Shown here in pieces: positions 5,277-44,876 of a DNA stretch of 64,000 nt (the stretch's first letter is position 1; the number at the start of each line of letters is the position of its first letter). The translations under genes were made by a program, and so were the position numbers. This stretch comes from Candidatus Saccharimonadales bacterium (GTDB lineage: Bacteria; Patescibacteriota; Saccharimonadia; Saccharimonadales; 2-12-FULL-41-12): NCBI GenBank assembly GCA_025451045.1, contig JANWLD010000001.1, positions 343,468 through 407,467 on the forward strand, read 5' to 3'. Below the pieces are notes generated by a model that worked only from the letters and a program-made list of their open reading frames with translations, was not told the DNA's origin and ran no database searches.

Positions 5277-6494
5277 ATGAACATGAAAAAACTCGCCAAA
5301 TCGCTGGTAGCATCTATTTTAGGCTGGCAGGTGCGCCGACTGCGCCGCAGACATGAGTTTAAAGTTATTGGCGTAGCTGGCGGCATAGGCAAAACAAGTA
5401 CCAAATTTGCAATAGTATCCGTCTTAAGCCAAAAGTTCAGTGTCAGGTTTCAGGAAGGGAATTATAACGATATTGTCAGCGTGCCGCTTGTTTTTTTTAA
5501 TCAGCCGATGCCTTCTTTATTTAACCCCTTGGACTGGCTAAAAGTATTTATTAAAAACGAGATTAAATTAAGACGGAAATACAGCCATGATTTCGTAATC
5601 GTTGAACTTGGAACCGACGGACCGGGGCAAATTGCCGAATTTGGTCGGTATCTAGATTTGGATATAGGTATTTTAACGGCTATCGTGCCAGAGCATATGG
5701 AGTATTTTGATAACTTGGAAGCGGTAGCAACCGAGGAATTGGGGATAGCTCGATTAAGCAAAAAATTATTTGTTAACACTGAGCTTTGCGATAAAAAATA
5801 TTTAGATAAGCTCAATAAAGACTTTATAGGCTACGATAGCACTAACGCAGAAAATATTGTTAAGACAAAAGACATAGTTCCAGCAAAAGCCCAGCTTTTC
5901 TCAGCCGCCGCCGCCGCGGTTGTTGGGGGCGAACTGGGATTGAGCACCAAGCAAGTAGAGACCGGCATAAAGTTAATCAAACCGGTGAGTGGCAGGATGC
6001 GGATACTTCAAGGAATTAACGGATCTGTGATAATTGACGATACTTACAACGCGAGCCCAGCAGCCATGAAACAGTCATTGGATACATTGTATAAACTCAA
6101 TCGGCAGGAGAAGATAGCATTATTAGGCAGCATGAATGAGTTAGGTCGGTTCTCAGCAGAAGAACACAACGCTATTGGAGAATATTGTGACCCTAAAGAA
6201 CTTAATCTTGTAGTGACTGTCGGTGAAGAAGCCGGTAAATATCTGGCGCCGGCGGCGGCAAAAAAAGGCTGCAAGATAAAGACCTTCATTGATCCTTACC
6301 AAGCAGGGGAATACCTTAAACAAACGATAAAACCTGAAACGGCCATTTTAGCCAAGGGTTCGCAGAACGGAATATTTGCCGAAGAAGCAGTCAAGATAAT
6401 TCTTGCTAAGCCCGAGGACGCTTCTAAGCTTGTCCGGCAAAGCCCCGACTGGCTTGCTAAAAAACAAAAACAATTCAGTGAGGCAAAAATATGA
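5277..6494 (+). CDS. murF: Mur ligase, UDP-MurNAc-tripeptide--D-Ala-D-Ala ligase-like
   Basis: 405 aa; P-loop 'GVAGGIGKTSTK'; 'DDTYNASPAAMKQSLDTL' typical of MurF; next gene is ddl. Confidence 0.8.
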   Translation: MNMKKLAKSLVASILGWQVRRLRRRHEFKVIGVAGGIGKTSTKFAIVSVLSQKFSVRFQEGNYNDIVSVPLVFFNQPMPSLFNPLDWLKVFIKNEIKLRRKYSHDFVIVELGTDGPGQIAEFGRYLDLDIGILTAIVPEHMEYFDNLEAVATEELGIARLSKKLFVNTELCDKKYLDKLNKDFIGYDSTNAENIVKTKDIVPAKAQLFSAAAAAVVGGELGLSTKQVETGIKLIKPVSGRMRILQGINGSVIIDDTYNASPAAMKQSLDTLYKLNRQEKIALLGSMNELGRFSAEEHNAIGEYCDPKELNLVVTVGEEAGKYLAPAAAKKGCKIKTFIDPYQAGEYLKQTIKPETAILAKGSQNGIFAEEAVKIILAKPEDASKLVRQSPDWLAKKQKQFSEAKI

Positions 6495-13282: not shown

Positions 13283-13311
13283 TTGACAACAGAGGTGAAT
13301 ATCTGTAGAAT
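13283..13311 (+). promoter_or_regulatory. sigma70-type promoter of rpsP
   Basis: TTGACA (13283-13288), 17-nt spacer, TAGAAT (13306-13311). Confidence 0.7.
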
Positions 13312-13381
13312 ACCCAAGATATTTATATTGGTTAATTTCCGGAAATTACCGGATTAAGTTAAAGGAAGAGTAAATTATTAG

Positions 13382-13936
13382 ATGCTAAGTATACGCATGC
13401 AAAGATTAGGCCGAAAAGGACATCCTATGTACCGAGTTGTTGTTCAGGACAGCCGACAATCGCCTGATAGCGGCAAATACATAGCTTTGCTTGGTAACTT
13501 TGACCCGCACAACAAAACCGCGAATATAGTCAAGGAGAAGGCCGAACATTACTTGAAACACGGCGCTCAACCATCTGAGAGGGTAGTGAAGCTGTTCAAG
13601 TCGGAAAAGATAGCCTTGCCGGCGTGGGTAAAAGAACCGGCCAAACAAGAGCGAAAGACGCGCAATCCGGAAAAACTGCGCAAAAACCGCCCGGTAGGTA
13701 CACCGGCTCCGGAAAAACCGGCTGAAGAAGCCACTTCGCAGACAGAAGTTGCGCAAGCCGAAGCTTCAGAAGAGGCAACCGAGAGTACATCTGAGTCCGA
13801 GCAACCAGCGGAAGAAACCACTGAAGAAACAGAGGAAACTAAGCAGCCAAAACAGGCTGACGAAACCGCTGAGACACCGGAAGCTGAAAAGAAAAGCGGC
13901 GAAGCCGACGAAGATTCTACCGACAAAAAGGCTTGA
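13382..13936 (+). CDS. rpsP: 30S ribosomal protein S16 with long acidic C-terminal extension
   Basis: 184 aa; N-terminus 'MLSIRMQRLGRKGHPMYRVVV' colinear with S16; about 90-aa E/T/A-rich tail. Confidence 0.9.
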   Translation: MLSIRMQRLGRKGHPMYRVVVQDSRQSPDSGKYIALLGNFDPHNKTANIVKEKAEHYLKHGAQPSERVVKLFKSEKIALPAWVKEPAKQERKTRNPEKLRKNRPVGTPAPEKPAEEATSQTEVAQAEASEEATESTSESEQPAEETTEETEETKQPKQADETAETPEAEKKSGEADEDSTDKKA

Positions 13937-22247: not shown

Positions 22248-23027
22248 TTATAACTCTTCTATCAGTTTTTTCAGATATCTACTCGATTTTGGTTTTACAT
22301 CGTGCATTTCAGGCACGTAATCAAGCTTAAGGCGCGGGTTGATTTGGGCAAGTTTCTTGGCCTTAACCTTTGATACGAAGAAATCAAACCGTCCGTATAT
22401 GATATGGACTGGTTTTGATATTATTTCCAGCTGTGACAGCGTTTCCTGCGCCAGAATGGTGTTGTTAAGCGAATGTTCAATTGGCAGCCAGCTTTCTTCG
22501 TCGGTCTTGAATCCGCCCAGTTTATTGCTAAATTTATTCGACACTTTAGCGTATGTCGAAAGCGTCGGCGGCTTGCCTGCCAGGTATTTATAAAATTTTT
22601 TATGTAGCGAGCGCTTTTCGTCAAAATCCAAAAGGGGCGGCTTATATAGGACGGCGGCCCGAACTTTGTCCGGCCATTTACAAGCTATATATGTCGTGAT
22701 TATGCAGCCCATGGAATGGCCGATGAAGATAAACTGCTCGCTTTTTGCGGACTCCTTGCTTAGGCTATGCATTATAGCTTTGGCGTGTTCTTTGGTTGAG
22801 TATTTGGCGTAACCGGGCTTTGGTGATACGCCAAAACCCAGTAAATCATAACTTCTGACTCGGTATTTTTCACTTTCAAAAAGTTTTACCAAAGGAGTCC
22901 AAATTTTAGAACTGGAAGCCAAGCCGTGGATTAAGACGACATTTATTGGGCCATTGCCTATATCTACCACTTTTTCCAGGCGATAAGGCCTTTTCAAATA
23001 TCTATGCCAAACAGTATCAAGAACCAT
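22248..23027 (-). CDS. alpha/beta-fold hydrolase
   Basis: 259 aa; nucleophile elbow 'GHSMG'; '[10 protein letters not shown]' oxyanion region. Confidence 0.8.
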
Positions 23028-35423: not shown

Positions 35424-37031
35424 GTGGCTGAAATTGCCGGTAATGCACTGCTGTCTGTGTTTGATAAGACAGGCATTGAGGAATTTGCCAAAGGCTTAGC
35501 AGACTTAGGCTGGCGTATTTACGCGTCCGGTGGTACGGCTGAAGCTATCAAAAAAACTGGAGTGGAAGTCATTGATACCTCTGAACTCTCCGGCGGCGGC
35601 GCTATCCTGGGCCATCGTGTAGTCACCTTGTCGCGTGAAATATACGCCGGGATCTTGGCTGATTCATCCCAAGAAAAAGAACTCGATAAACTTAATATCC
35701 CAAAGATAGATTTGGTCTGCGTTGATATGTATCCGCTGAAAGAAGCGATTGATTCCGGCTCAAACGAAGCCGAAGTGATTGAAAAGACCGATGTTGGCGG
35801 CCCGACGCTGTTGCACGCGGCAGCCAAAGGCCGGCGAATAGTTTTGGCTCGCCCAGAGCAAAGAATAGAAGTTTTGGACTGGCTGGAAGCCGGTAAGCCG
35901 GATGAGGCTAAGTTTCGCAAAAAGCTGGCGGCCATAGCCGAATATGAAGTCGCGAATTATATGATTAAATCGGCTAATTATCTGGGCGAAGGCCATACTC
36001 TCGGCTATCTAGGCGAGCGGGTAGCCGCGCCGCCATATGGAGAAAATCCATGGCAGGGAAACGCGGGGCTATATATCGAAAGAGATAATCAGGATCCGCT
36101 GTCGCTCGGCAAATTCAAATTAATAGAAGGCAATGAACTTAGCTATAACAATTTCACTGATGTCGACAGGCTCCTCCAGACCATTACCCATGCCGCCGCT
36201 TCTTTTGAAAAGAACAACGGGGAAGTGCCGATTATCGCTCTGGGCGCTAAACACGGCAACCTTTGCGGCGCCGGATTTAACAAGGCCGCAAAAATAGCAG
36301 TTGAAAAAATGCTGGAAGGCGACTTGCGGGCTATATTTGGCGGTTCGGTAGTTATCAATACTGCCATTACAAAAGAAATTGCCGAAACGATAATGGGCTA
36401 TAAGATAGAAAAAGGAAAGCGGATACTTGATATTGTAATGGCACCGAGTGTTGATGATGACGCGTTGGAATTACTTAAGCGTAAAAATGGCAAGTTGCGC
36501 GTGCTTATCAATCCGGCTCTTGGCGAACTTGGTGAAAAATCTTTGGATAGTGCCCGTCGGCCAAGATATGTCCGCGGCGGCCGGTTGGCACAGGATAATT
36601 ATACCTTTGTTATAAACTACGCCTCGCCGGATGTCGAAAAACACGGCGCGCCGCCGACTAAAGGGCAAATGGATGACATGCAACTGGCTTGGGCGGTAGG
36701 GACGACCAGCAACAGTAACAGCATTTGTATAGTCAAAGACGGTATGTTGCTTTCTAATGGCGTTGGCCAGCAGGACAGGGTAACGGCTGCGGAACTGGCG
36801 TTGATGCGGGCAAAGAATGCCAGGCATGATACAAAGGGCGCTTCGGCCTACAGCGATAGTTTTTTTCCGTTCCCGGACGGGCCGCAAATATTGGCCGATG
36901 CGGGCGTGAAAGCTATCTTGACTACCAGGGGTTCGGTTAATGACGGGGTAGTGGTGGAAACCTTAACCAAAGCCGGTGTAACGTTTTGCACCTTTCCCGA
37001 CGCACAAGCACGCGGTTTTTACGCGCATTAA
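35424..37031 (+). CDS. purH: bifunctional AICAR transformylase / IMP cyclohydrolase
   Basis: 535 aa; GTG start after GGGAG; MGS-like N-terminus 'ALLSVFDKTGIEEFAKGL...ASGGTA'; C-terminal 'AYSDSFFPFPDG'. Confidence 0.9.
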   Translation: MAEIAGNALLSVFDKTGIEEFAKGLADLGWRIYASGGTAEAIKKTGVEVIDTSELSGGGAILGHRVVTLSREIYAGILADSSQEKELDKLNIPKIDLVCVDMYPLKEAIDSGSNEAEVIEKTDVGGPTLLHAAAKGRRIVLARPEQRIEVLDWLEAGKPDEAKFRKKLAAIAEYEVANYMIKSANYLGEGHTLGYLGERVAAPPYGENPWQGNAGLYIERDNQDPLSLGKFKLIEGNELSYNNFTDVDRLLQTITHAAASFEKNNGEVPIIALGAKHGNLCGAGFNKAAKIAVEKMLEGDLRAIFGGSVVINTAITKEIAETIMGYKIEKGKRILDIVMAPSVDDDALELLKRKNGKLRVLINPALGELGEKSLDSARRPRYVRGGRLAQDNYTFVINYASPDVEKHGAPPTKGQMDDMQLAWAVGTTSNSNSICIVKDGMLLSNGVGQQDRVTAAELALMRAKNARHDTKGASAYSDSFFPFPDGPQILADAGVKAILTTRGSVNDGVVVETLTKAGVTFCTFPDAQARGFYAH

Positions 37032-37069
37032 GACGCTAACGAGCGGGAACACTTCCCTGCTTCCCTATT

Positions 37070-37089
37070 TGTACTATTGCAATAGTACA
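37070..37089. promoter_or_regulatory. TrpR-operator-like perfect 20-bp palindrome
   Basis: TGTACTATTGCAATAGTACA has the same outer 7-bp arms and 6-bp centre spacing as the E. coli trp operator TGTACTAGTTAACTAGTACA; overlaps the -35 hexamer. Confidence 0.7.
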
Positions 37090-37105
37090 CAAATACAGGT
37101 ATAAT
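37077..37105 (+). promoter_or_regulatory. promoter of the trpR-trp operon (leaderless geometry)
   Basis: TTGCAA (37077-37082), 17-nt spacer, TATAAT (37100-37105), N6, ATG 37112. Confidence 0.65.
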
Positions 37106-37111
37106 GACGTG

Positions 37112-37378
37112 ATGAGTAAAAAATACGACGACGAGCTTCTAGAGCTTTTTTGTCAGACTGTTGACAAATTTACAATGTCTGAAATTTTATCAAATATGCT
37201 GACACCACAAGAGAGAGAAGAGCTGGCCACTCGCCTGCAAATATTTAAAAAACTGATTAAAGGCGAGAACCAACGCAGGATTGCTAAAGACTTGGGCGTT
37301 AGTATTGCCACTATTACCCGCGGCAGCCGCGAACTTCAATACGGCAAACCGGGCATTCGAAAGTTATACAAGAAATGA
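37112..37378 (+). CDS. trpR: Trp repressor
   Basis: 88 aa; '[47 protein letters not shown]' is colinear with E. coli TrpR '[48 protein letters not shown]'; stop overlaps the trpE ATG (ATGA). Confidence 0.85.
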   Translation: [88 protein letters not shown]

Positions 37379-38754
37379 TTGATTTAAGTTTTTTGAGCGA
37401 CAAACCCAAACCCGTCAATTTACCGACGGGCGTGGACTATTTGAAGCTTTTCTTTGCGCTTAAAAATAATTTTGGAGCGAGCTATATGTTTGAGTCGCTG
37501 GTTCTGCCAAAACAACAAGACCGGTACTACACTATAGGCTTTGACCCGCTATATGTTTTCTCAGCGCGCGGCGATAAGCTGACGATTAAAAGCAAAAACG
37601 GTTCGAAGGAAGTTGATACAAGTAACCCTTATCTTGAGCTGAAACAGTTTTTGCCTGCGATACCTAATGCGTCGCGCTACCAGGGCGGACTTGTCGGTTA
37701 TTTTGCTTACGAAGCGGCCAATTACTTCGAACCGGCGCTTGATTTGCCCAAGCACCCGGACTTCCCGACTTTTGAACTTGGGCTGTACGTTGACGGGCTG
37801 ATTTATGACAGCAAAACCCGCGAACTGACTTATTACACCTTTGGTGAAGATAGAAGTCCAGTCATAAAAGATGAAATTAATAATCTGAAAAATATTAACT
37901 TCCCCAAAAAAGTGGTAATAGCTGAGGATAAGGGCCTGTCTATTGATAAAGCACGGTATATGAAAATAGTGGAAACCACGCTTGATGAAATCAAAAAGGG
38001 TAACAGTTTTCAGGTAGAGGTAGGCTTCCGGAAAGATTACCAAATAACCGGCGATAAGTTTGCTATCTACAAACATCTGCGCGACGTTAACCCCAGTCCA
38101 TATATGTATTACATGCATTTTGGCGAGCGGGAAATTTTCGGCGCCAGCCCGGAACTGGTTGTCAGCTCAACCGGCGGCAATATATTGACTACTCCGGCCG
38201 CCGGTACGGTCAGACGCGGTGCTACGGAAGAAGAGGATAAAAAACTGGCCCGGCAACTGCTTAATGACCCGAAAGAACTATCCGAACACGCCATGCTGGT
38301 TGATCTTCATCGCAATGATATTTCCAAAGTCAGCAAATACGGTTCGGTCAAGGTAGCCGAGCTGATGCATCTGATGAAATTCAAATACGTCCAGCATATC
38401 TGCAGCGATATCATCGGCGAACTTAGAGAAGATAAGGACAGTTTTGATTTGCTTGGCGCCATAATGCCCTGCGGTGTCCTGACCGGCGCGCCAAAGATTG
38501 AAACGATGAAAATAATTGCCAGAAACGAACAATCACCGCGCGGTCCGTACGGCGGAGCTGTCGGCCGTTTCAGTTTCAATGGCGACTGCGCCTTTACCAT
38601 GCCTATACGCAGCCTGTTTTGTGCCGGAGACCATTGTTTTAACCAAGCCTGCAGCGGCGTAGTTTTTGACTCAGAGCCGGAAAAAGAATATGACGAAGTA
38701 ATAGCCAAGCTGTCTGGTATGGAGCAGACGATAAAGGAAGTATCAAATGGTTAA
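37375..38754 (+). CDS. trpE: anthranilate synthase component I
   Basis: 459 aa; 'GLVGYFAYEAANYFEP', 'EHAMLVDLHRNDI', 'GAPKIETMKIIARNEQSPRGPYGGAVG'. Confidence 0.9.
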   Translation: MIDLSFLSDKPKPVNLPTGVDYLKLFFALKNNFGASYMFESLVLPKQQDRYYTIGFDPLYVFSARGDKLTIKSKNGSKEVDTSNPYLELKQFLPAIPNASRYQGGLVGYFAYEAANYFEPALDLPKHPDFPTFELGLYVDGLIYDSKTRELTYYTFGEDRSPVIKDEINNLKNINFPKKVVIAEDKGLSIDKARYMKIVETTLDEIKKGNSFQVEVGFRKDYQITGDKFAIYKHLRDVNPSPYMYYMHFGEREIFGASPELVVSSTGGNILTTPAAGTVRRGATEEEDKKLARQLLNDPKELSEHAMLVDLHRNDISKVSKYGSVKVAELMHLMKFKYVQHICSDIIGELREDKDSFDLLGAIMPCGVLTGAPKIETMKIIARNEQSPRGPYGGAVGRFSFNGDCAFTMPIRSLFCAGDHCFNQACSGVVFDSEPEKEYDEVIAKLSGMEQTIKEVSNG

Positions 38755-39382
38755 AATATTGATTATTGATAACTACGACAGCTTTACTTATAACCTCGAG
38801 CATTTGTTCGGCGCCCTGCCCGACGTGAAAGTTGAAGTAGTAAGAAATGATGCTGATTTTATTCCTGAACTTGAGGCTGGTAAATATGACGGTGTAATCA
38901 TTAGTCCCGGTCCCGGTACGCCGCTCGATGAGAGTTATTTTGGTAAAAATCGGGAAGTAATAAGCCGTTTCGGCAAAAATGGCCTGCCAATCTTGGGAAT
39001 ATGCCTCGGTTTTCAGGGTATAGCCGCTACATTCGGCGCTAGTCTTAAACAAGCCGCTTTGCCCCAGCACGGCAAGCCCTCCGTGCTTAAGGTGACTAAG
39101 GATAGCCCTATATTGAAAGGCGTGCCGGACAATATAAAAGTCATGAGATACCACAGCTTGATGGTTGATATGGACAAGCCTTTTCCTGATGAGCTGATTA
39201 TTTTTGCTGAGGTTAACCCAGCCGCCGAAACAGTAAGTAAAAACGGCCGGGAAATAATGGGAATTGCCCACAAAAATCATCCTATATTCGGACTGCAGTT
39301 CCATCCGGAAAGTTATGCCACCGAACTGGGCAGTATCATTGCCGCGAATTTCATTGATATCATAAAAAGGAACCAAAAATGA
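38747..39382 (+). CDS. trpG: anthranilate synthase component II (glutamine amidotransferase)
   Basis: 211 aa; 'ILIIDNYDSFTYNL', nucleophile 'GICLGFQ', 'GLQFHPES'. Confidence 0.9.
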   Translation: MVKILIIDNYDSFTYNLEHLFGALPDVKVEVVRNDADFIPELEAGKYDGVIISPGPGTPLDESYFGKNREVISRFGKNGLPILGICLGFQGIAATFGASLKQAALPQHGKPSVLKVTKDSPILKGVPDNIKVMRYHSLMVDMDKPFPDELIIFAEVNPAAETVSKNGREIMGIAHKNHPIFGLQFHPESYATELGSIIAANFIDIIKRNQK

Positions 39383-41598
39383 CAATCGCAGAGTTTTTAA
39401 CCCGTACCGCCCAAGGCAAATTGTCTTTGGACGAACAAAAAGAATATCTGGCGGATAATCCTTTTCCGCCGGTAGAAGAGATAGCCGAAGCGGTCGAGTA
39501 TTTATACGGGCAGATGTCTGATGTACCCGACTTGCCCGACGCTATTGATATTTGCGGTACCGGCGGTTCGGGTTTGCCAAGGCTTAATGTCAGCACTATC
39601 AGCGCTTTTATCATTGCCGCCACCGGTACCAAAGTCGCCAAACATGGCAATAACGCCGCCAGCGGCAAATTTGGCAGCTTTGACTTGCTTGATGCCCTTG
39701 ATGTACCGATAAATCTATCGGTCCAAGAACTTCAACTAAGGTTCAACGAATACAACCTGGCATTTTTATATGCTAAAAGCTTTCACCCGATAATGCGGTT
39801 TTTTGCTCCGGTTCGGGGTGAGCTAAAAACACCGACTTTCTTTAATATTCTCGGTCCTTTGCTCAGCCCGGTCAAAGCCAATCGGCAGCTTATCGGTACG
39901 CCGAGACTTGAATATGCCCGGATTATCGCCGAAGTTTCCAAGATTCTTGGTAAAGAACGGGTCATCGTAGCAGTTGGCAGCGACGGACTGGACGAGGTTA
40001 CTTTAACCGGAGTTACCCATATTGTAGAGCTGAAAGACAAACGGATTGAAGAATACGAAATTACTCCAGCCGATTTTGGGGTTGAGCCGATTGCTGACTT
40101 TTCAGAAATTTCTACTGAAAGTCCCGAACACAACATTGAAATGGCTAAATTAATTTTGTCCGGGAAAGAAAAAGGCAAATTAACCCAATTAGTACTGGTA
40201 AATGCCGCGCTGGCGCTTTATATTGCGGAAGTATCGGATGATTTGAAAGAATGCTACAAATTGGCAAAAGATACTCTTGATTCCGGCAAAGCCCAAGAGG
40301 TTTTGGCAAATTACCTGATGCCGAGCGTGCTTAAAAAAATAATAGAGCGTGATGCCAAACGCGATTTTAGTATTACCGAAAAAAATACTCATAAACCGAA
40401 AAAATACACTGGCGGCCTGATTGCTGAAGTAAAGCGGTCCAGCCCCAGCGAAGGAGTTATAAACGATAAGCTGGATATAGTAGCCCAAGCCAAGCTTTAT
40501 GAAAATTCCGGGGCGTCAGCTATAAGCGTGCTGACGGAACCGGAAGACTTTGGCGGAAGTTTTGAAGACTTGAAAGAAATTAAGCAGGCAGTAAATATTC
40601 CGGTGCTTTGCAAAGATTTTATAGTTAGAAAAGAACATATCGACAAGGCCAAAGCTTGCGGCGCGGACATGGTGCTTTTGATTGCGGCGACTTTGAGCGA
40701 GGACAAGCTCAAAAAATTATATGATTATGCAAAAGATTCGGGGTTGCAATCGATAGTAGAAGTCCACACCGGCGCTGAACTGGAAAAAGCTTTGAAATTA
40801 AAACCCGAAATCATCGGTGTTAATTCGCGTAACCTTCATGACTTTTCGCTTCATCCGGACATCTTTGGACAACTGCTTTCCAAGCTACCGGCCAATACGA
40901 TTAAAATCGCTGAAAGCGGCATTAGCGGCTACGGCGATGTGCCAAAAGGTTATGACGGAATCCTTGTCGGTACCGAACTTATGAAGCATCCTTTCCCGCA
41001 GCTTAAAATTAAAGAACTTTTGGGCCAGCCTCTGGTAAAAATGTGCGGTATCAGAGAAACAAATGATGCAAAACTGTGCGAAGAACTCGGCGTAGATATG
41101 ATAGGTATCAATTTCGCAGCGCGCAGTAAACGTAAAGTGACCGCCGAGCAAGGTAAAAAAATCGCCGCGGTCTGCAAAAATACCATCCCGGTAGGAATCT
41201 TTGAAAACCAGATGGCAGATGAGGCCAACCTTATAGCCGAACAAACCGGCATACAAGCTATGCAGTTATCCGGTAATGAAAAAGATTTGAGCGGGTATAA
41301 TCTTCCCATAATAAAAACCATACGTTTGGGCGAGGATAAGCCTGAGGGCGCCTTTCTGACAATTTTGGATAGTCCGGTTGCCGGCAGCGGTGAAAAAATT
41401 GACCACTCAAAAATTAATAAGTTTGAACCTAACCTGATAGCCGGCGGGGTTGATTTAAATGTAGCCAAAACATTGCTTAGCACTAAAAACCCCTTGGGCA
41501 TAGATACGGCCAGTGGAATTGAAACCAATGGCAAAGTCGATCCGACAAAAATCAAATCTCTGCAGAAGCTTGTATCAACCAGCCGATACGATTCTTAA
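39379..41598 (+). CDS. triple fusion: anthranilate phosphoribosyltransferase (TrpD) + indole-3-glycerol-phosphate synthase (TrpC) + phosphoribosylanthranilate isomerase (TrpF)
   Basis: 739 aa. About aa 1-313 is TrpD ('DICGTGGSG', 'VAKHGNNAASGKFGSFDLLDAL'). About aa 314-548 is TrpC ('LIAEVKRSSPSEG', 'ISVLTEPEDFGGS', 'PVLCKDFI', 'IGVNSRNL', 'IAESGI'). About aa 549-739 is TrpF ('VKMCGIR', 'IGINFAARSKR', 'MQLSGNE', 'IAGGVDLNV', 'GIDTASGIE'). Confidence 0.85.
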   Translation: MTIAEFLTRTAQGKLSLDEQKEYLADNPFPPVEEIAEAVEYLYGQMSDVPDLPDAIDICGTGGSGLPRLNVSTISAFIIAATGTKVAKHGNNAASGKFGSFDLLDALDVPINLSVQELQLRFNEYNLAFLYAKSFHPIMRFFAPVRGELKTPTFFNILGPLLSPVKANRQLIGTPRLEYARIIAEVSKILGKERVIVAVGSDGLDEVTLTGVTHIVELKDKRIEEYEITPADFGVEPIADFSEISTESPEHNIEMAKLILSGKEKGKLTQLVLVNAALALYIAEVSDDLKECYKLAKDTLDSGKAQEVLANYLMPSVLKKIIERDAKRDFSITEKNTHKPKKYTGGLIAEVKRSSPSEGVINDKLDIVAQAKLYENSGASAISVLTEPEDFGGSFEDLKEIKQAVNIPVLCKDFIVRKEHIDKAKACGADMVLLIAATLSEDKLKKLYDYAKDSGLQSIVEVHTGAELEKALKLKPEIIGVNSRNLHDFSLHPDIFGQLLSKLPANTIKIAESGISGYGDVPKGYDGILVGTELMKHPFPQLKIKELLGQPLVKMCGIRETNDAKLCEELGVDMIGINFAARSKRKVTAEQGKKIAAVCKNTIPVGIFENQMADEANLIAEQTGIQAMQLSGNEKDLSGYNLPIIKTIRLGEDKPEGAFLTILDSPVAGSGEKIDHSKINKFEPNLIAGGVDLNVAKTLLSTKNPLGIDTASGIETNGKVDPTKIKSLQKLVSTSRYDS

Positions 41599-41635
41599 AC
41601 TTACTAAAATAGATTAAGATAATAAAGGAGAGTTT

Positions 41636-41998
41636 ATGAGGAAAGCTCAATTGAAAATCTGGCTACTTTCTATCGGCGGGGCTATCGTCGCCGTGTTTCT
41701 GATATATCACGGGTTTAAGCTTCTATTTCGTCCGAATGATGCTTCAGACTGGCAATTGTTTTTCCTTGGTGTAGGCTGCGTGTTGACTAGTGTGTTTACC
41801 CTAGCCGCGCAGGTATACGTACCGAAGAAATATAAAATAAGCGGCGCCTTGATGTTTTTGGGTATTTACTTCTTTGCCCGGGCAACCGGTATTATAGAAG
41901 GGGCGTGGTTTATGCGATTTTTGGGCCTCGCCTCTCTAATAGGGGCAGGGCTAATAGTATATGTAACTTACCTTGGCGGTAAGAAGATACATTTCTAA
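41636..41998 (+). CDS. hypothetical 4-TM membrane protein
   Basis: 120 aa; AAAGGAG RBS; hydrophobic throughout. Confidence 0.6.
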   Translation: MRKAQLKIWLLSIGGAIVAVFLIYHGFKLLFRPNDASDWQLFFLGVGCVLTSVFTLAAQVYVPKKYKISGALMFLGIYFFARATGIIEGAWFMRFLGLASLIGAGLIVYVTYLGGKKIHF

Positions 41999-42009
41999 AA
42001 GGTAGGGTA

Positions 42010-42411
42010 CTAAACTTCGGTTTCTGAACCGTGAACAGTCAACGCGTAGATTATCAGAATGTCAACGACTATTACGATGATTGACCAGATAGGGTACGCA
42101 TCGATAAATACAAAGTTAGCTATGATGGAGAATATTGCGAGCAATACCGCAACTATTCTTCCCCAAGCATGGCCGCTGATAACAGCTGTTCCGGCCAGCA
42201 TGACTACCAACCCTACCAAGAGGTGAATCCAACCCCAAGTAGTGTAGTCGAATACCAGTAGATTTTCCTGACCCACCACATAGAATTTGTCATTGAGCAG
42301 AGCCGCTAATCCGGCAATCATCTGCAGGATGCCTGTTATAAGCATCATAAATCCGGCGAAATATATCCAACCGACCCACCCGGTAACTTGTTTTCCGTTA
42401 TTGTTAGCCAT
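42010..42411 (-). CDS. 4-TM membrane protein, paralog A (DUF7144-like)
   Basis: Start set at the ATG preceded by GGAGG ('ttggaggattacATG'); 'TGWVGWI', 'FDYTTWGWIHL', 'AYPIWSI' shared with the neighbour. Confidence 0.65.
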   Translation of the reverse strand: MANNNGKQVTGWVGWIYFAGFMMLITGILQMIAGLAALLNDKFYVVGQENLLVFDYTTWGWIHLLVGLVVMLAGTAVISGHAWGRIVAVLLAIFSIIANFVFIDAYPIWSIIVIVVDILIIYALTVHGSETEV

Positions 42412-42438
42412 GTAATCCTCCAACTAACTTAAATTTTA

Positions 42439-42831
42439 TTAATCTTTGACCTCGGCTCCGTGCATAGTTAATGCATAGATAACCAAGCCGTCGATAACTA
42501 AAGCGGTAATTGACCAAATAGGGTAGGCAGAAACGAACGCGAGATTGGCAACTGCGCTCAAAATAGCCAAAAATACCCCAATAACTCTGCCCCAAGCCTG
42601 TCCGGCCATTACAGCACAGCCCGCGGCAAAAATAACGATTCCCATTATCAGGTGAATCCAGCCCCAGGTCGTATAATCAAAAGCCAGCAACCCGTTTTGT
42701 GTGGCGACATAAAAGTCGTCTTTAAAAAGTGCTGCTAGTCCGGCTATTGCCTGAAGACTTCCGAGCAAGAGCATCATAGCGCTTGCAAAAAATATCCAAC
42801 CTACCCAGCCTGTTGGTTTGTTGTTTGACAT
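42439..42831 (-). CDS. 4-TM membrane protein, paralog B (DUF7144-like)
   Basis: Start set at the ATG preceded by AAGGAGG ('aaggagggtccATG'); same conserved blocks as paralog A. Confidence 0.65.
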   Translation of the reverse strand: MSNNKPTGWVGWIFFASAMMLLLGSLQAIAGLAALFKDDFYVATQNGLLAFDYTTWGWIHLIMGIVIFAAGCAVMAGQAWGRVIGVFLAILSAVANLAFVSAYPIWSITALVIDGLVIYALTMHGAEVKD

Positions 42832-42913
42832 GGACCCTCCTTGTTTATATTCCCTATTGTCCGCCAATTATTTTAAATGTCAACCATAAGCAAAATGGCA
42901 AATACAGAGAAGT

Positions 42914-42922
42914 TGTTATAAT
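42914..42922 (+). promoter_or_regulatory. extended -10 (TGtTATAAT) N6 upstream of ATG 42929: leaderless-type promoter
   Basis: TGtTATAAT gatttc ATG. Confidence 0.55.
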
Positions 42923-42928
42923 GATTTC

Positions 42929-43216
42929 ATGCAAAAAGAATTTGACCGCCATCTTTATAGAGTTTTATTAGCCGCAACCCTTTTGACTTTGAGCATAGGC
43001 ACTGTTGTATATCATGAAGTAGAACACTTTAACTGGGTGGATGCTTATTATTTCAGCGTTATTACTCTGGCCACTGTCGGTTATGGCGATTTTACGCCGC
43101 ATACCACTTTTGGCAAAATTTTTACCACTTTCTATATTTTTATCGGCGTAGGCATTATTACGGCTTTCATTACTTACTCTATCCGCCGCCGAGCCAGCCG
43201 GATGAAGAAAAAGTAA
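42929..43216 (+). CDS. minimal two-TM potassium channel (95 aa)
   Basis: TM1, pore helix, selectivity filter 'TVGYGD', TM2; no cytoplasmic regulatory domain, only a short basic tail. Confidence 0.8.
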   Translation: MQKEFDRHLYRVLLAATLLTLSIGTVVYHEVEHFNWVDAYYFSVITLATVGYGDFTPHTTFGKIFTTFYIFIGVGIITAFITYSIRRRASRMKKK

Positions 43217-44108: not shown

Positions 44109-44876
44109 TCACACCGCGCATCTGACCAGTTCGTCATGACAAACTTTATTTGACAGGATGGCTCCCTTAAACGGTTTGGTGTAATCAAGTTCGCGTCCAT
44201 CATAACCGGTAACTTTTCCGCCGGCTTCTTCGACGATGACATGGACGGCGGCGATATCGTGCGGATTTACTAATTTTTCAAGATAACCTACGGCTCTTCC
44301 CCGGGCAACTAAGCATGATTTATAAACAGCGCCGTAAATAGAATCAAGCCTGGCCCCTGTTTCCAGCAAATTATTTATCAGTTTGGTATCAGCTATTATC
44401 TTCTTGGGATTGCTTGGCATCAACACGTAATGACCACGCAGTTTATTGCCTGAAACAGCTAAGGGCTTACCGTTGCAAAAACTGCCCTGGCCTTTAGTAG
44501 CCCAATAAAGCTTGTCCAAAAAGGGGTCATAAGCTACACCTATTATTGGCACCCCATCAACTACCAAAGCAAGTGAAAATGTCGCGCTGGGTATACCGAT
44601 TACAAAAGCCCTGGTTCCGTCTATCGGGTCGCATATCCATTTTCTGCCGCTACCATAGTCGCTGGTACTTTCTTCCTCGCCGATTATACCGTCATCAAAG
44701 TGTTTTGATAGTTCTTTGATTACCATGGAATTAATCTTTTTATCGGCGATAGTTACTTCTGTGGCGCCGGCTATATCTTTATGTTCCAAGCCTTGGTCAC
44801 CGTCAAAATATTCCAGCATAATCTTACCGGCTTTGAGGGCAATGTCTTTGGCTATTTTCAATTCAGTTTCGTACAT
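44109..44876 (-). CDS. suhB: inositol monophosphatase family protein
   Basis: 255 aa; 'WICDPIDGTRAF', 'IGEE', 'DIAAVHVIVEEAGG'. Confidence 0.85.
   Translation of the reverse strand: MYETELKIAKDIALKAGKIMLEYFDGDQGLEHKDIAGATEVTIADKKINSMVIKELSKHFDDGIIGEEESTSDYGSGRKWICDPIDGTRAFVIGIPSATFSLALVVDGVPIIGVAYDPFLDKLYWATKGQGSFCNGKPLAVSGNKLRGHYVLMPSNPKKIIADTKLINNLLETGARLDSIYGAVYKSCLVARGRAVGYLEKLVNPHDIAAVHVIVEEAGGKVTGYDGRELDYTKPFKGAILSNKVCHDELVRCAV

Follow-up and report, generated by a model that had tools for sequence, protein, structure and literature searches.

The locus described here lies in a 64,000-nucleotide (nt) stretch of contig JANWLD010000001.1 from a Candidatus Saccharimonadales bacterium (the window, meaning this whole stretch). 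A gene for an 88-amino-acid (aa) Trp repressor homologue, trpR, is followed there directly by trpE, trpG and a fused trpD-trpC-trpF gene (trpDCF), and is preceded by a perfect palindrome of 20 base pairs (bp). We consider it quite probable that this palindrome is the operator of the TrpR encoded directly 3' of it, and that TrpR acts as a tryptophan-sensing autorepressor on the promoter of a trpR-trpE-trpG-trpDCF transcript that is probably leaderless. The features of the locus, numbered from the first nucleotide of the window, are as follows.

37041-37062, plus strand: weak hairpin and possible purH terminator, from a terminator-like scan and RNA folding; without a strong T-run, assignment uncertain
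37070-37089, no strand: predicted TrpR operator, the perfect 20-bp palindrome TGTACTATTGCAATAGTACA, conserved 5' of trpR in relatives and with bases that co-vary with TrpR residues
37077-37082, plus strand: -35 hexamer TTGCAA, in the middle of the operator; all eight closest loci have TTGCA[AC] here
37092-37096, plus strand: possible third half-site AATAC, 8 bp 3' of AGTAC, in register for a second tandem TrpR dimer
37100-37105, plus strand: -10 hexamer TATAAT, a fixed 17 nt from the -35 hexamer; the eight closest loci all read TATA[AC]T
37112-37378, plus strand: trpR, 88-aa predicted Trp repressor
37375-38754, plus strand: trpE, anthranilate synthase component I
38747-39382, plus strand: trpG, glutamine amidotransferase component
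39379-41598, plus strand: fused trpD-trpC-trpF (739 aa), the last trp gene of the cluster

The genes are tightly packed. purH (35424-37031, stop codon 37029-37031) ends 80 nt before trpR, and the 3' part of the gap reads cttccctatt TGTACTATTGCAATAGTACA caaatacagg TATAAT gacgtg ATG. The trpR and trpE genes overlap by 4 nt (ATGA, with the trpR stop TGA at 37376-37378 and the trpE ATG at 37375-37377), trpE and trpG by 8 nt, and trpG and trpDCF by 4 nt. A preliminary description of the locus had placed trpR as the first cistron of the trp operon, with its stop overlapping the trpE start; the coordinates agree, and trpE, trpG and trpDCF follow directly on the same strand. The mechanical open reading frame (ORF) of trpR starts at GTG 37109, but ATG 37112 is favoured because homologues (27 of them) start with M-[SNQK]-KKYD or close variants.

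By its profile scores and predicted fold, the 88-aa protein is a true TrpR, and the earlier view of it as a bona fide homologue is borne out. It matches the Pfam family Trp_repressor (PF01371; 2.2e-21, 76.1 bits versus a cut-off of 27) and the NCBIfam TrpR equivalog model (TIGR01321; 72.5 bits versus a cut-off of 67.25), and scores 30.6 bits with the YerC/YecD model (TIGR02531), under the cut-off of 42.2. Its recognition helix, IATITRGS, is identical to that of E. coli TrpR, a member of the same family, and the six residues that contact DNA in that protein (R69, I79, A80, T81, T83 and R84; PMC9413887) are all kept in the alignment, as R55, I65, A66, T67, T69 and R70. In the helix-turn-helix region, 47% of the residues are identical to those of E. 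coli TrpR, and all significant sequence matches in the PDB are TrpR proteins (E approximately 1e-11). The AlphaFold monomer model has six helices and a predicted local distance difference test (pLDDT) score of 93.4, and its best PDB matches by Foldseek are 1trr, 1zt9 and 1tro (E. coli TrpR and DNA complexes). The corepressor pocket of E. coli TrpR comprises R54 and R84, which sandwich the indole ring, together with T44 and neighbouring residues. The window TrpR retains these three residues (as R41, R70 and T31, respectively); across 28 homologues from the candidate phyla radiation (CPR), R41 is invariant, and R70 and T31 are each present in at least 90%. Other pocket positions kept in the window TrpR are M29, L30, P32, I44, T67 and G71.

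The palindrome can be read directly in the sequence at 37070-37089, as first described, and exceeds every other perfect palindrome of the window in length. GTACT (37071-37075) and AGTAC (37084-37088) form its half-sites, and the pattern TGTACTA-N6-TAGTACA has this single match in the window, the next-best sites having three mismatches. At least one perfect 20-bp palindrome appeared in 16 of 200 first-order Markov simulations of the window, so the length by itself is suggestive at most; the significance of the palindrome comes from its sequence, position and conservation. The published gamma-proteobacterial TrpR motif is TGTAcTnGTnnACnAgTACA, with a rule of GNACT half-sites spaced 8 bp apart (PMC9413887). 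The window site has this arrangement and lies over the promoter, as does the E. coli operator, likewise a 20-bp palindrome. It agrees with the motif at 14 of the 16 specified positions, and departs from it symmetrically at positions 8 and 13, where it has CTAT instead of CTAG. The preliminary description had called the arms and spacing identical to those of the classical E. coli operator, which stands for the idealised symmetric form TGTACTAGTTAACTAGTACA but not for the natural K-12 site, which we read as CGAACTAGTTAACTAGTACG.

The AATAC at 37092-37096 may provide a weaker half-site for a second dimer. Half-sites with this 8-bp phasing accompany the palindrome in many loci; clearer ones (AGAAC) are found 3' of it in three close relatives (L004, L005 and L007), and phased copies occur 5' of it in six other loci (L012, L015, L017, L024, L028 and L065). 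Phasing by 8 bp agrees with the tandem dimer binding of E. coli TrpR, for which PDB entry 1trr is titled accordingly. The further operators that the preliminary description had suggested looking for were not found in the window, where no site other than the one at trpR has fewer than two mismatches to GTACT-N8-AGTAC.

Comparison with related loci ties the site to the repressor gene. A profile of 28 homologues gave 80 loci from species-representative genomes, which are mostly from Patescibacteria (Saccharimonadales, Peregrinibacteria/Peribacteria, Gracilibacteria, Roizmanbacteria and Pacebacteria), with a few labelled Gammaproteobacteria (e.g., Marinagarivorans), Fibrobacterales and Fidelibacterota. 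GTACT-N8-AGTAC was sought in the 80 nt 5' of trpR in 79 loci and in 10,742 background windows of equal size. With up to two mismatches it is present in 64 of the 79 loci (81%) versus 155 of the background windows (1.4%), with up to one mismatch in 42 versus 15, and as an exact match in 16 versus 1. In an alignment of the closest loci (the window, L081 from an 896-kb contig of the Joint Genome Institute, L001-L005 and L007), the operator and the -10 box alone are conserved, and the flank 5' of the operator varies freely. Here TGT[AT]CT[AG]TTGCA[AC]TAG[AT]AC and TATA[AC]T show virtually no variation, and their spacing is fixed at 17 nt.

The bases of the site also co-vary with the residues of the repressor. 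Half-sites have G as their outer base in 82 of 108 cases where the equivalent of Arg69 is present, versus 9 of 36 where it is absent (p = 8e-8), and TrpR proteins that have QH, HQ, QQ and similar residues instead go with ATACT...AGTAT in place of GTACT...AGTAC. Gly at the position of Ala80 goes with GTTCT/AGAAC half-sites (16 of 44, versus 3 of 100 with Ala); in L005 and L007, both operator arms are altered symmetrically to GTTCT...AGAAC along with changes in the repressor. At the position of Gly78, the CTAT/CTAG counts are 45/9 for Ser versus 12/32 for Gly (p = 3e-8), these and the preceding p-values being from Fisher tests without phylogeny correction, which overstate independence. The window combines Ser64 with CTAT and E. 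coli combines Gly78 with CTAG, and this pairing accounts for the sole symmetric departure of the window site from the published motif. Even without that correction, the co-variation is as expected for direct recognition with the repressor docked as in E. coli.

In four loci, a strong GTACT-N8-AGTAC lies in the intergenic region 3' of trpR (L020 at about 3264, L049 at about 6684, L055 at about 6523 and L066 at about 6328). Three of the four are without a good operator 5' of trpR at its likely start; in L055, an operator lies 21 nt before an alternative upstream ATG. The trpS gene lies just 5' of trpR in L020 and L049, where trpR may be co-transcribed with trpS and regulate the genes that come after trpR.

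The promoter is nested in the palindrome. TTGCAA in the palindrome centre had been proposed as the -35 hexamer, with TATAAT 17 nt downstream and the ATG 6 nt further on; the positions were verified, and this geometry is kept in the eight closest loci. TTGCAA-17-TATAAT is the best sigma-70-like match between 36500 and 42500 (10 of 12 positions). Six bases (GACGTG) separate TATAAT from ATG 37112, the corresponding spacer is 6-8 nt in all eight close loci, and no Shine-Dalgarno sequence is seen before trpR. The trpR mRNA is probably leaderless, with its start at or within approximately 1 nt of the A of ATG 37112. Among window genes, 11 of 62 have a -10-like box 6-9 nt before the start codon, versus a background of approximately 0.7 per position, which points to leaderless mRNAs being frequent in this genome beside Shine-Dalgarno-led genes. 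Gene starts with such TATAAT-like boxes include 22248-23027 and 44109-44876 (both minus strand), 49949, 52955 and 58356. Shine-Dalgarno-like sequences are found at approximately 25 of 65 window genes, and the genome seems to use both modes. In a literature search, leaderless mRNAs of Patescibacteria came up only in passing.

The 8 loci of the window's clade, in which the operator centre is the -35 hexamer, represent one of two promoter designs. In another 23 loci, the operator centre contains a -10-like hexamer (TATAAT, TATACT or TACAAT), with a TTGACA-like hexamer 16-18 nt 5' of it and, in 18 of the 23, the start codon 5-11 nt 3' of it. The E. coli trp promoter as read from K-12 is of this second design (TTGACA-17-TTAACT, with TTAACT inside CGAACTAGTTAACTAGTACG), so that E. 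coli trp and the window both nest a promoter hexamer in the operator centre, the -10 in the former and the -35 in the latter. At E. coli aroH, it is likewise the -35 that the operator covers.

At L002, the deposited protein (P0019, MYNERVNKRYD...) starts at an ATG inside the predicted promoter, overlapping TATAAT (5986-6003). This start is probably mis-called, a GTG 6 nt after TATAAT being the likely true one, and trpR of L002 may have a leaderless GTG start.

Control by RNA at this locus (a T-box, a leader-peptide attenuator or a TRAP site) was considered and rejected. The preliminary description had argued that there is no room for such elements, which holds for a purH-trpR gap of 80 nt and a trpR-trpE gap of 0 nt. 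No Rfam match was found in the region at the gathering threshold or at E <= 1, and the fold energy of the palindrome region is unremarkable (z-score -1.4).

From the sequence, we infer physical binding of TrpR to the palindrome, tryptophan as its ligand, the position of the transcription start and a tandem second dimer, which together give the following scheme. When L-tryptophan is plentiful, the TrpR dimer with its Trp corepressor would bind the two GTACT half-sites (37071-37088), and a second dimer could bind the weaker, 8-bp-phased half-site at 37092-37096. Since the bound region contains the -35 hexamer, RNA polymerase would be kept off TTGCAA-17-TATAAT, and the single transcript of trpR-trpE-trpG-trpDCF, whose overlapping genes are probably translationally coupled, would be silenced. 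Transcription would probably begin with the A of the trpR start codon, or directly beside it, to give a leaderless mRNA. The repressor heads the transcript that it would shut off, and so would control its own level along with that of the pathway (negative autoregulation).

The operon type varies across the loci. The order trpR-trpE-trpG-trpD-trpC-trpF is kept in approximately 30 loci, the trpR/trpE overlap is present in the close relatives L001-L005 and L007, and the trpD-trpC-trpF fusion is also present in L081 and L005. purH precedes trpR in L001-L004 and L081 but is not upstream in L005 and L007. In other loci, the first gene after trpR is a TrpB-like PALP enzyme (L044, L047, L054, L059, L062 and L077), a class-I Trp/Tyr-type tRNA synthetase taken as trpS (L064 and L075) or a TrpD-like gene (L051), and TrpR seems to serve these CPR bacteria as a general sensor of tryptophan. 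No recognisable trp gene is the first after trpR in three loci from Saccharibacteria and Roizmanbacteria, where a DUF3182 protein (L011, 6404-7531; L042, 6404-7387) or a DIT1/PvcA-like protein (L057, 1656-2609) takes that place; trpS lies further 3' in L011 and L057. The DUF3182 and DIT1/PvcA-like genes are candidate new members of a tryptophan-responsive regulon.

In the window, the cluster ends at trpF and does not extend to tryptophan synthase (trpB and trpA) as in the Chlamydia type. No TrpB-like sequence is found in the 64 kb at E <= 1e-8 (tblastn), no trpB lies within 10 kb in L081, and none is present in the available sequence 3' of trpF in L002-L004. In the more distant L005 and in Peregrinibacteria loci, trpB comes directly after trpF. 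The stretches compared at this end of the cluster are 39379-41700 of the window, 12268-14600 of L081 and 8217-11679 of L005. In a search with the L005 TrpB protein, which gave at least 8,000 candidates, none of the 120 best was on a contig of 538,338 bp or 896,268 bp, the lengths of the contigs of the window and of L081. A TrpR-controlled operon that truly ends at trpF in a genome lacking trpB and trpA, i.e., a truncated pathway under a tryptophan switch, is in our judgement rather unlikely; trpBA elsewhere on the contig of the window is the simpler reading. If the pathway is truncated, indole-3-glycerol phosphate or a derivative would be finished by a partner organism, and the operon would represent a regulated metabolic hand-off in an episymbiont lineage.

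Several observations weigh against the assignment of the palindrome as the operator of a tryptophan-sensing TrpR. At three positions of the Trp pocket, the window TrpR has residues other than those of E. coli (N for L41, F for V58 and E for S88), and operator positions 8 and 13, at which the site departs from the published motif, are in the mutation-sensitive CTAG core of the E. coli operator. The co-variation statistics carry the limit given above, the purH hairpin is weak and purH read-through is possible, and the absence of trpB and trpA from the cluster leaves the output of the regulated pathway not fully clear. In addition, the same 18-mer is found 5' of GntR-family genes in other bacteria and so is not unique to TrpR. 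Resemblance to the E. coli operator is therefore no proof on its own, because this type of palindrome is shared with an unrelated family; it is the comparison across loci that provides the proof.

The last point raises the question of whether the palindrome is bound by another regulator, e.g., a small GntR/YtrA-type repressor, with the adjacency of trpR being incidental. A metagenome-wide scan with the exact 18-mer GTACTRTTGCAMTAGTAC gave 54 loci, just 3 of which are trpR loci and approximately 25 of which are inside long ORFs (roughly the chance expectation for so large a collection); no new TrpR target was found among the 54. The scan did reveal near-identical palindromes (TGTACTAGTGCAATAGTACA and variants) 5-25 nt 5' of genes for GntR-family proteins of 128-133 aa, which are probably self-regulated YtrA-like repressors. 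These are confined to unrelated contigs of high GC content (56-72%; L090, L091, L108, L105, L098, L122, L102 and L127), whereas the gene adjoining the window site is trpR and not a GntR gene. The association of the motif with trpR in 81% of the 79 loci versus 1.4% of the background, the co-variation of its bases with helix-turn-helix residues of TrpR and the fit of its half-site to the documented GNACT rule (PMC9413887) likewise make a foreign regulator very improbable. We give still less credence to the idea that the palindrome is an RNA element or a plain promoter or terminator feature, such as a hairpin ending purH or a chance symmetric -35, with no repressor involved. A perfect 20-bp palindrome arises by chance in approximately 8% of the simulated windows, the palindrome can fold into an 8-bp hairpin and it begins 38 nt after the purH stop; against this, it is followed by no T-run, its fold z-score is only -1.4 with no Rfam match, and L005 and L007 retain the site although they lack purH upstream, the symmetric arm changes in both accompanying changes in the repressor.

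It is also conceivable, but quite unlikely, that a TrpR-family repressor acts on this site with another ligand, or with none. The family includes HisR, which uses histidine (PMC9413887), and the backbone of the model is closer to HisR/YerC-type structures (template-modelling scores of 0.8-0.9) than to E. coli TrpR (approximately 0.7). The three altered pocket positions point the same way. HisR, of the YerC/YecD branch, shares its fold with the window TrpR, and its operator is likewise a palindrome of 20 bp; autoregulation of HisR is common, and in some cases its gene heads the operon under its control (Elusimicrobium; PMC9413887). However, the motif usual for HisR, cacTTTA-N6-TAAAgtg, is unlike the window operator, the equivalent of Arg69 is Tyr in HisR but is kept in the window TrpR, and the latter lies beside trp and not his genes. 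The window protein scores above the TrpR equivalog cut-off and below that for YerC/YecD, has 36% identity to TrpR versus 24-28% to HisR-type structures, and conserves the equivalents of R54, R84 and T44. The genes regulated here are all trp genes, and in other CPR loci TrpB-like, trpS-like or TrpD-like genes come first after trpR, with unrelated or unassigned genes at that place in a few. A different kind of alternative keeps the operator and repressor as proposed but supposes an mRNA that is not leaderless, with a start upstream (purH read-through or another promoter) and with TrpR acting partly as a roadblock. The weak purH terminator and the purH-trpR synteny in L001-L004 and L081 lend this version some plausibility, and it has a real, if minor, chance of being correct. 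The conservation of TTGCA[AC]-17-TATAAT and of the 6-8-nt spacer but not of the upstream flank, the lack of a Shine-Dalgarno sequence before trpR, the retention of the promoter in L005 and L007 without purH upstream, and the similar geometry between -10 and ATG at other window genes all favour a leaderless start.

An autoregulated TrpR on a promoter-occluding operator, as we propose for the window, can be compared with known systems. The E. coli trpR gene is also autoregulated (PMC9413887), but it is unlinked and monocistronic (PMC6504234), whereas trpR is the first cistron in the window. Other differences are the operator core (CTAT in the window versus CTAG), the Ser in place of Gly78, an N-terminus that is shorter by 20 residues, the absence of a trpL attenuator and the probably leaderless start. 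The preliminary description had presented the compact, trpR-led design as distinct from the unlinked trpR of E. coli, which is correct, but among other bacteria such a design is not exceptional. In Simkania negevensis, the operon is trpR/trpE/trpG/trpD/trpC/trpF/trpB/trpA/aroA, with 18 nt between trpR and trpE and with the other genes overlapping, and this has been read as autoregulation (PMC3937554); the window shares its compact packing and its trpR-E-G-D-C-F order. In C. trachomatis, the operon is trpRBA, and TrpR binding at the promoter 5' of trpR was shown there according to work cited in PMC6504234. C. caviae likewise has a trpR-led operon (trpR-trpDCFBA-kynU-prsA). In the window as in these chlamydial operons, trpR is the first gene of an operon that it is thought to repress, with the trp genes following on the same strand. 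The window differs from Chlamydiae in its phylum (Patescibacteria/CPR), in the trpR/trpE overlap, in the fusion of trpD, trpC and trpF, in the lack of trpB, trpA and aroA from the cluster, and in having no intergenic region, attenuator or second regulator such as YtgR. Within CPR bacteria, operons of tRNA-Trp and a tryptophanyl-tRNA synthetase (TrpRS-A) that are headed by a trp repressor have been reported, without description of their operators (Mukai et al. 2017). Comparable arrangements are seen in the present loci with a TrpB-like or TrpRS-like gene after trpR; in the reported operons the regulated genes serve tRNA charging, and not biosynthesis as do the genes under the predicted operator of the window.

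What is new here is modest: the system and its operator in Saccharimonadales and much of the CPR, for which our literature search found no described TrpR operator, the operator with a nested -35, the probable leaderless start, the trpDCF fusion and the co-variation series. The repressor, the rule for its operator, the occlusion of the promoter and the autoregulation all follow the model established for E. coli, and operons headed by trpR are known from Chlamydiae.

A few other features were noted near the cluster and elsewhere in the window. The heptamer CTTCCCT forms a direct repeat just 5' of the operator (37052-37058 and 37060-37066), the first copy being overlapped by the hairpin at 37041-37062. 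One or two copies (in places TTCCCT) are at the same position in the four closest relatives (L001, L002, L003 and L081), and the rest of the window shows no enrichment of the heptamer. Its possible roles include the 3' half of the purH terminator and a further binding site. Beyond trpDCF, a block of approximately 1.6 kb (41636-43216) is absent from the otherwise collinear L081. It carries four small membrane-protein genes, which encode a 120-aa protein that is weakly LiaF-TM-like, a 95-aa minimal potassium-channel-like protein (Ion_trans_2, with TVGYGD) and two paralogous DUF7144 proteins of 137 and 142 aa (minus strand). The second-longest perfect palindrome of the window, TAATTTCCGGAAATTA at 13333-13348, sits between a good promoter match (TTGACA-17-TAGAAT, approximately 13285-13313) and the gene for ribosomal protein S16 (13382-13936), and could be an operator or a 5'-leader hairpin.

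The trpR locus of the window provides a confident and testable predicted pair of transcription factor and operator for the CPR. It indicates that TrpR-operator recognition of the E. coli type is retained across very distant phyla, which extends the textbook picture to a new group without altering it. CPR TrpR proteins head several kinds of operon, those for Trp biosynthesis (trpE to trpF or trpB), those with only a TrpB-like gene (suggestive of indole salvage) and those with a TrpRS-like gene (tRNA charging). The conserved gap of 6-8 nt between the -10 hexamer and the ATG makes trpR a clear-cut candidate for leaderless translation among these bacteria. Finally, the paired changes of repressor and site (Arg69 with the outer G, Gly78 to Ser with CTAG to CTAT, and Ala80 to Gly with GTACT to GTTCT) could inform the debate on direct versus indirect readout by TrpR.

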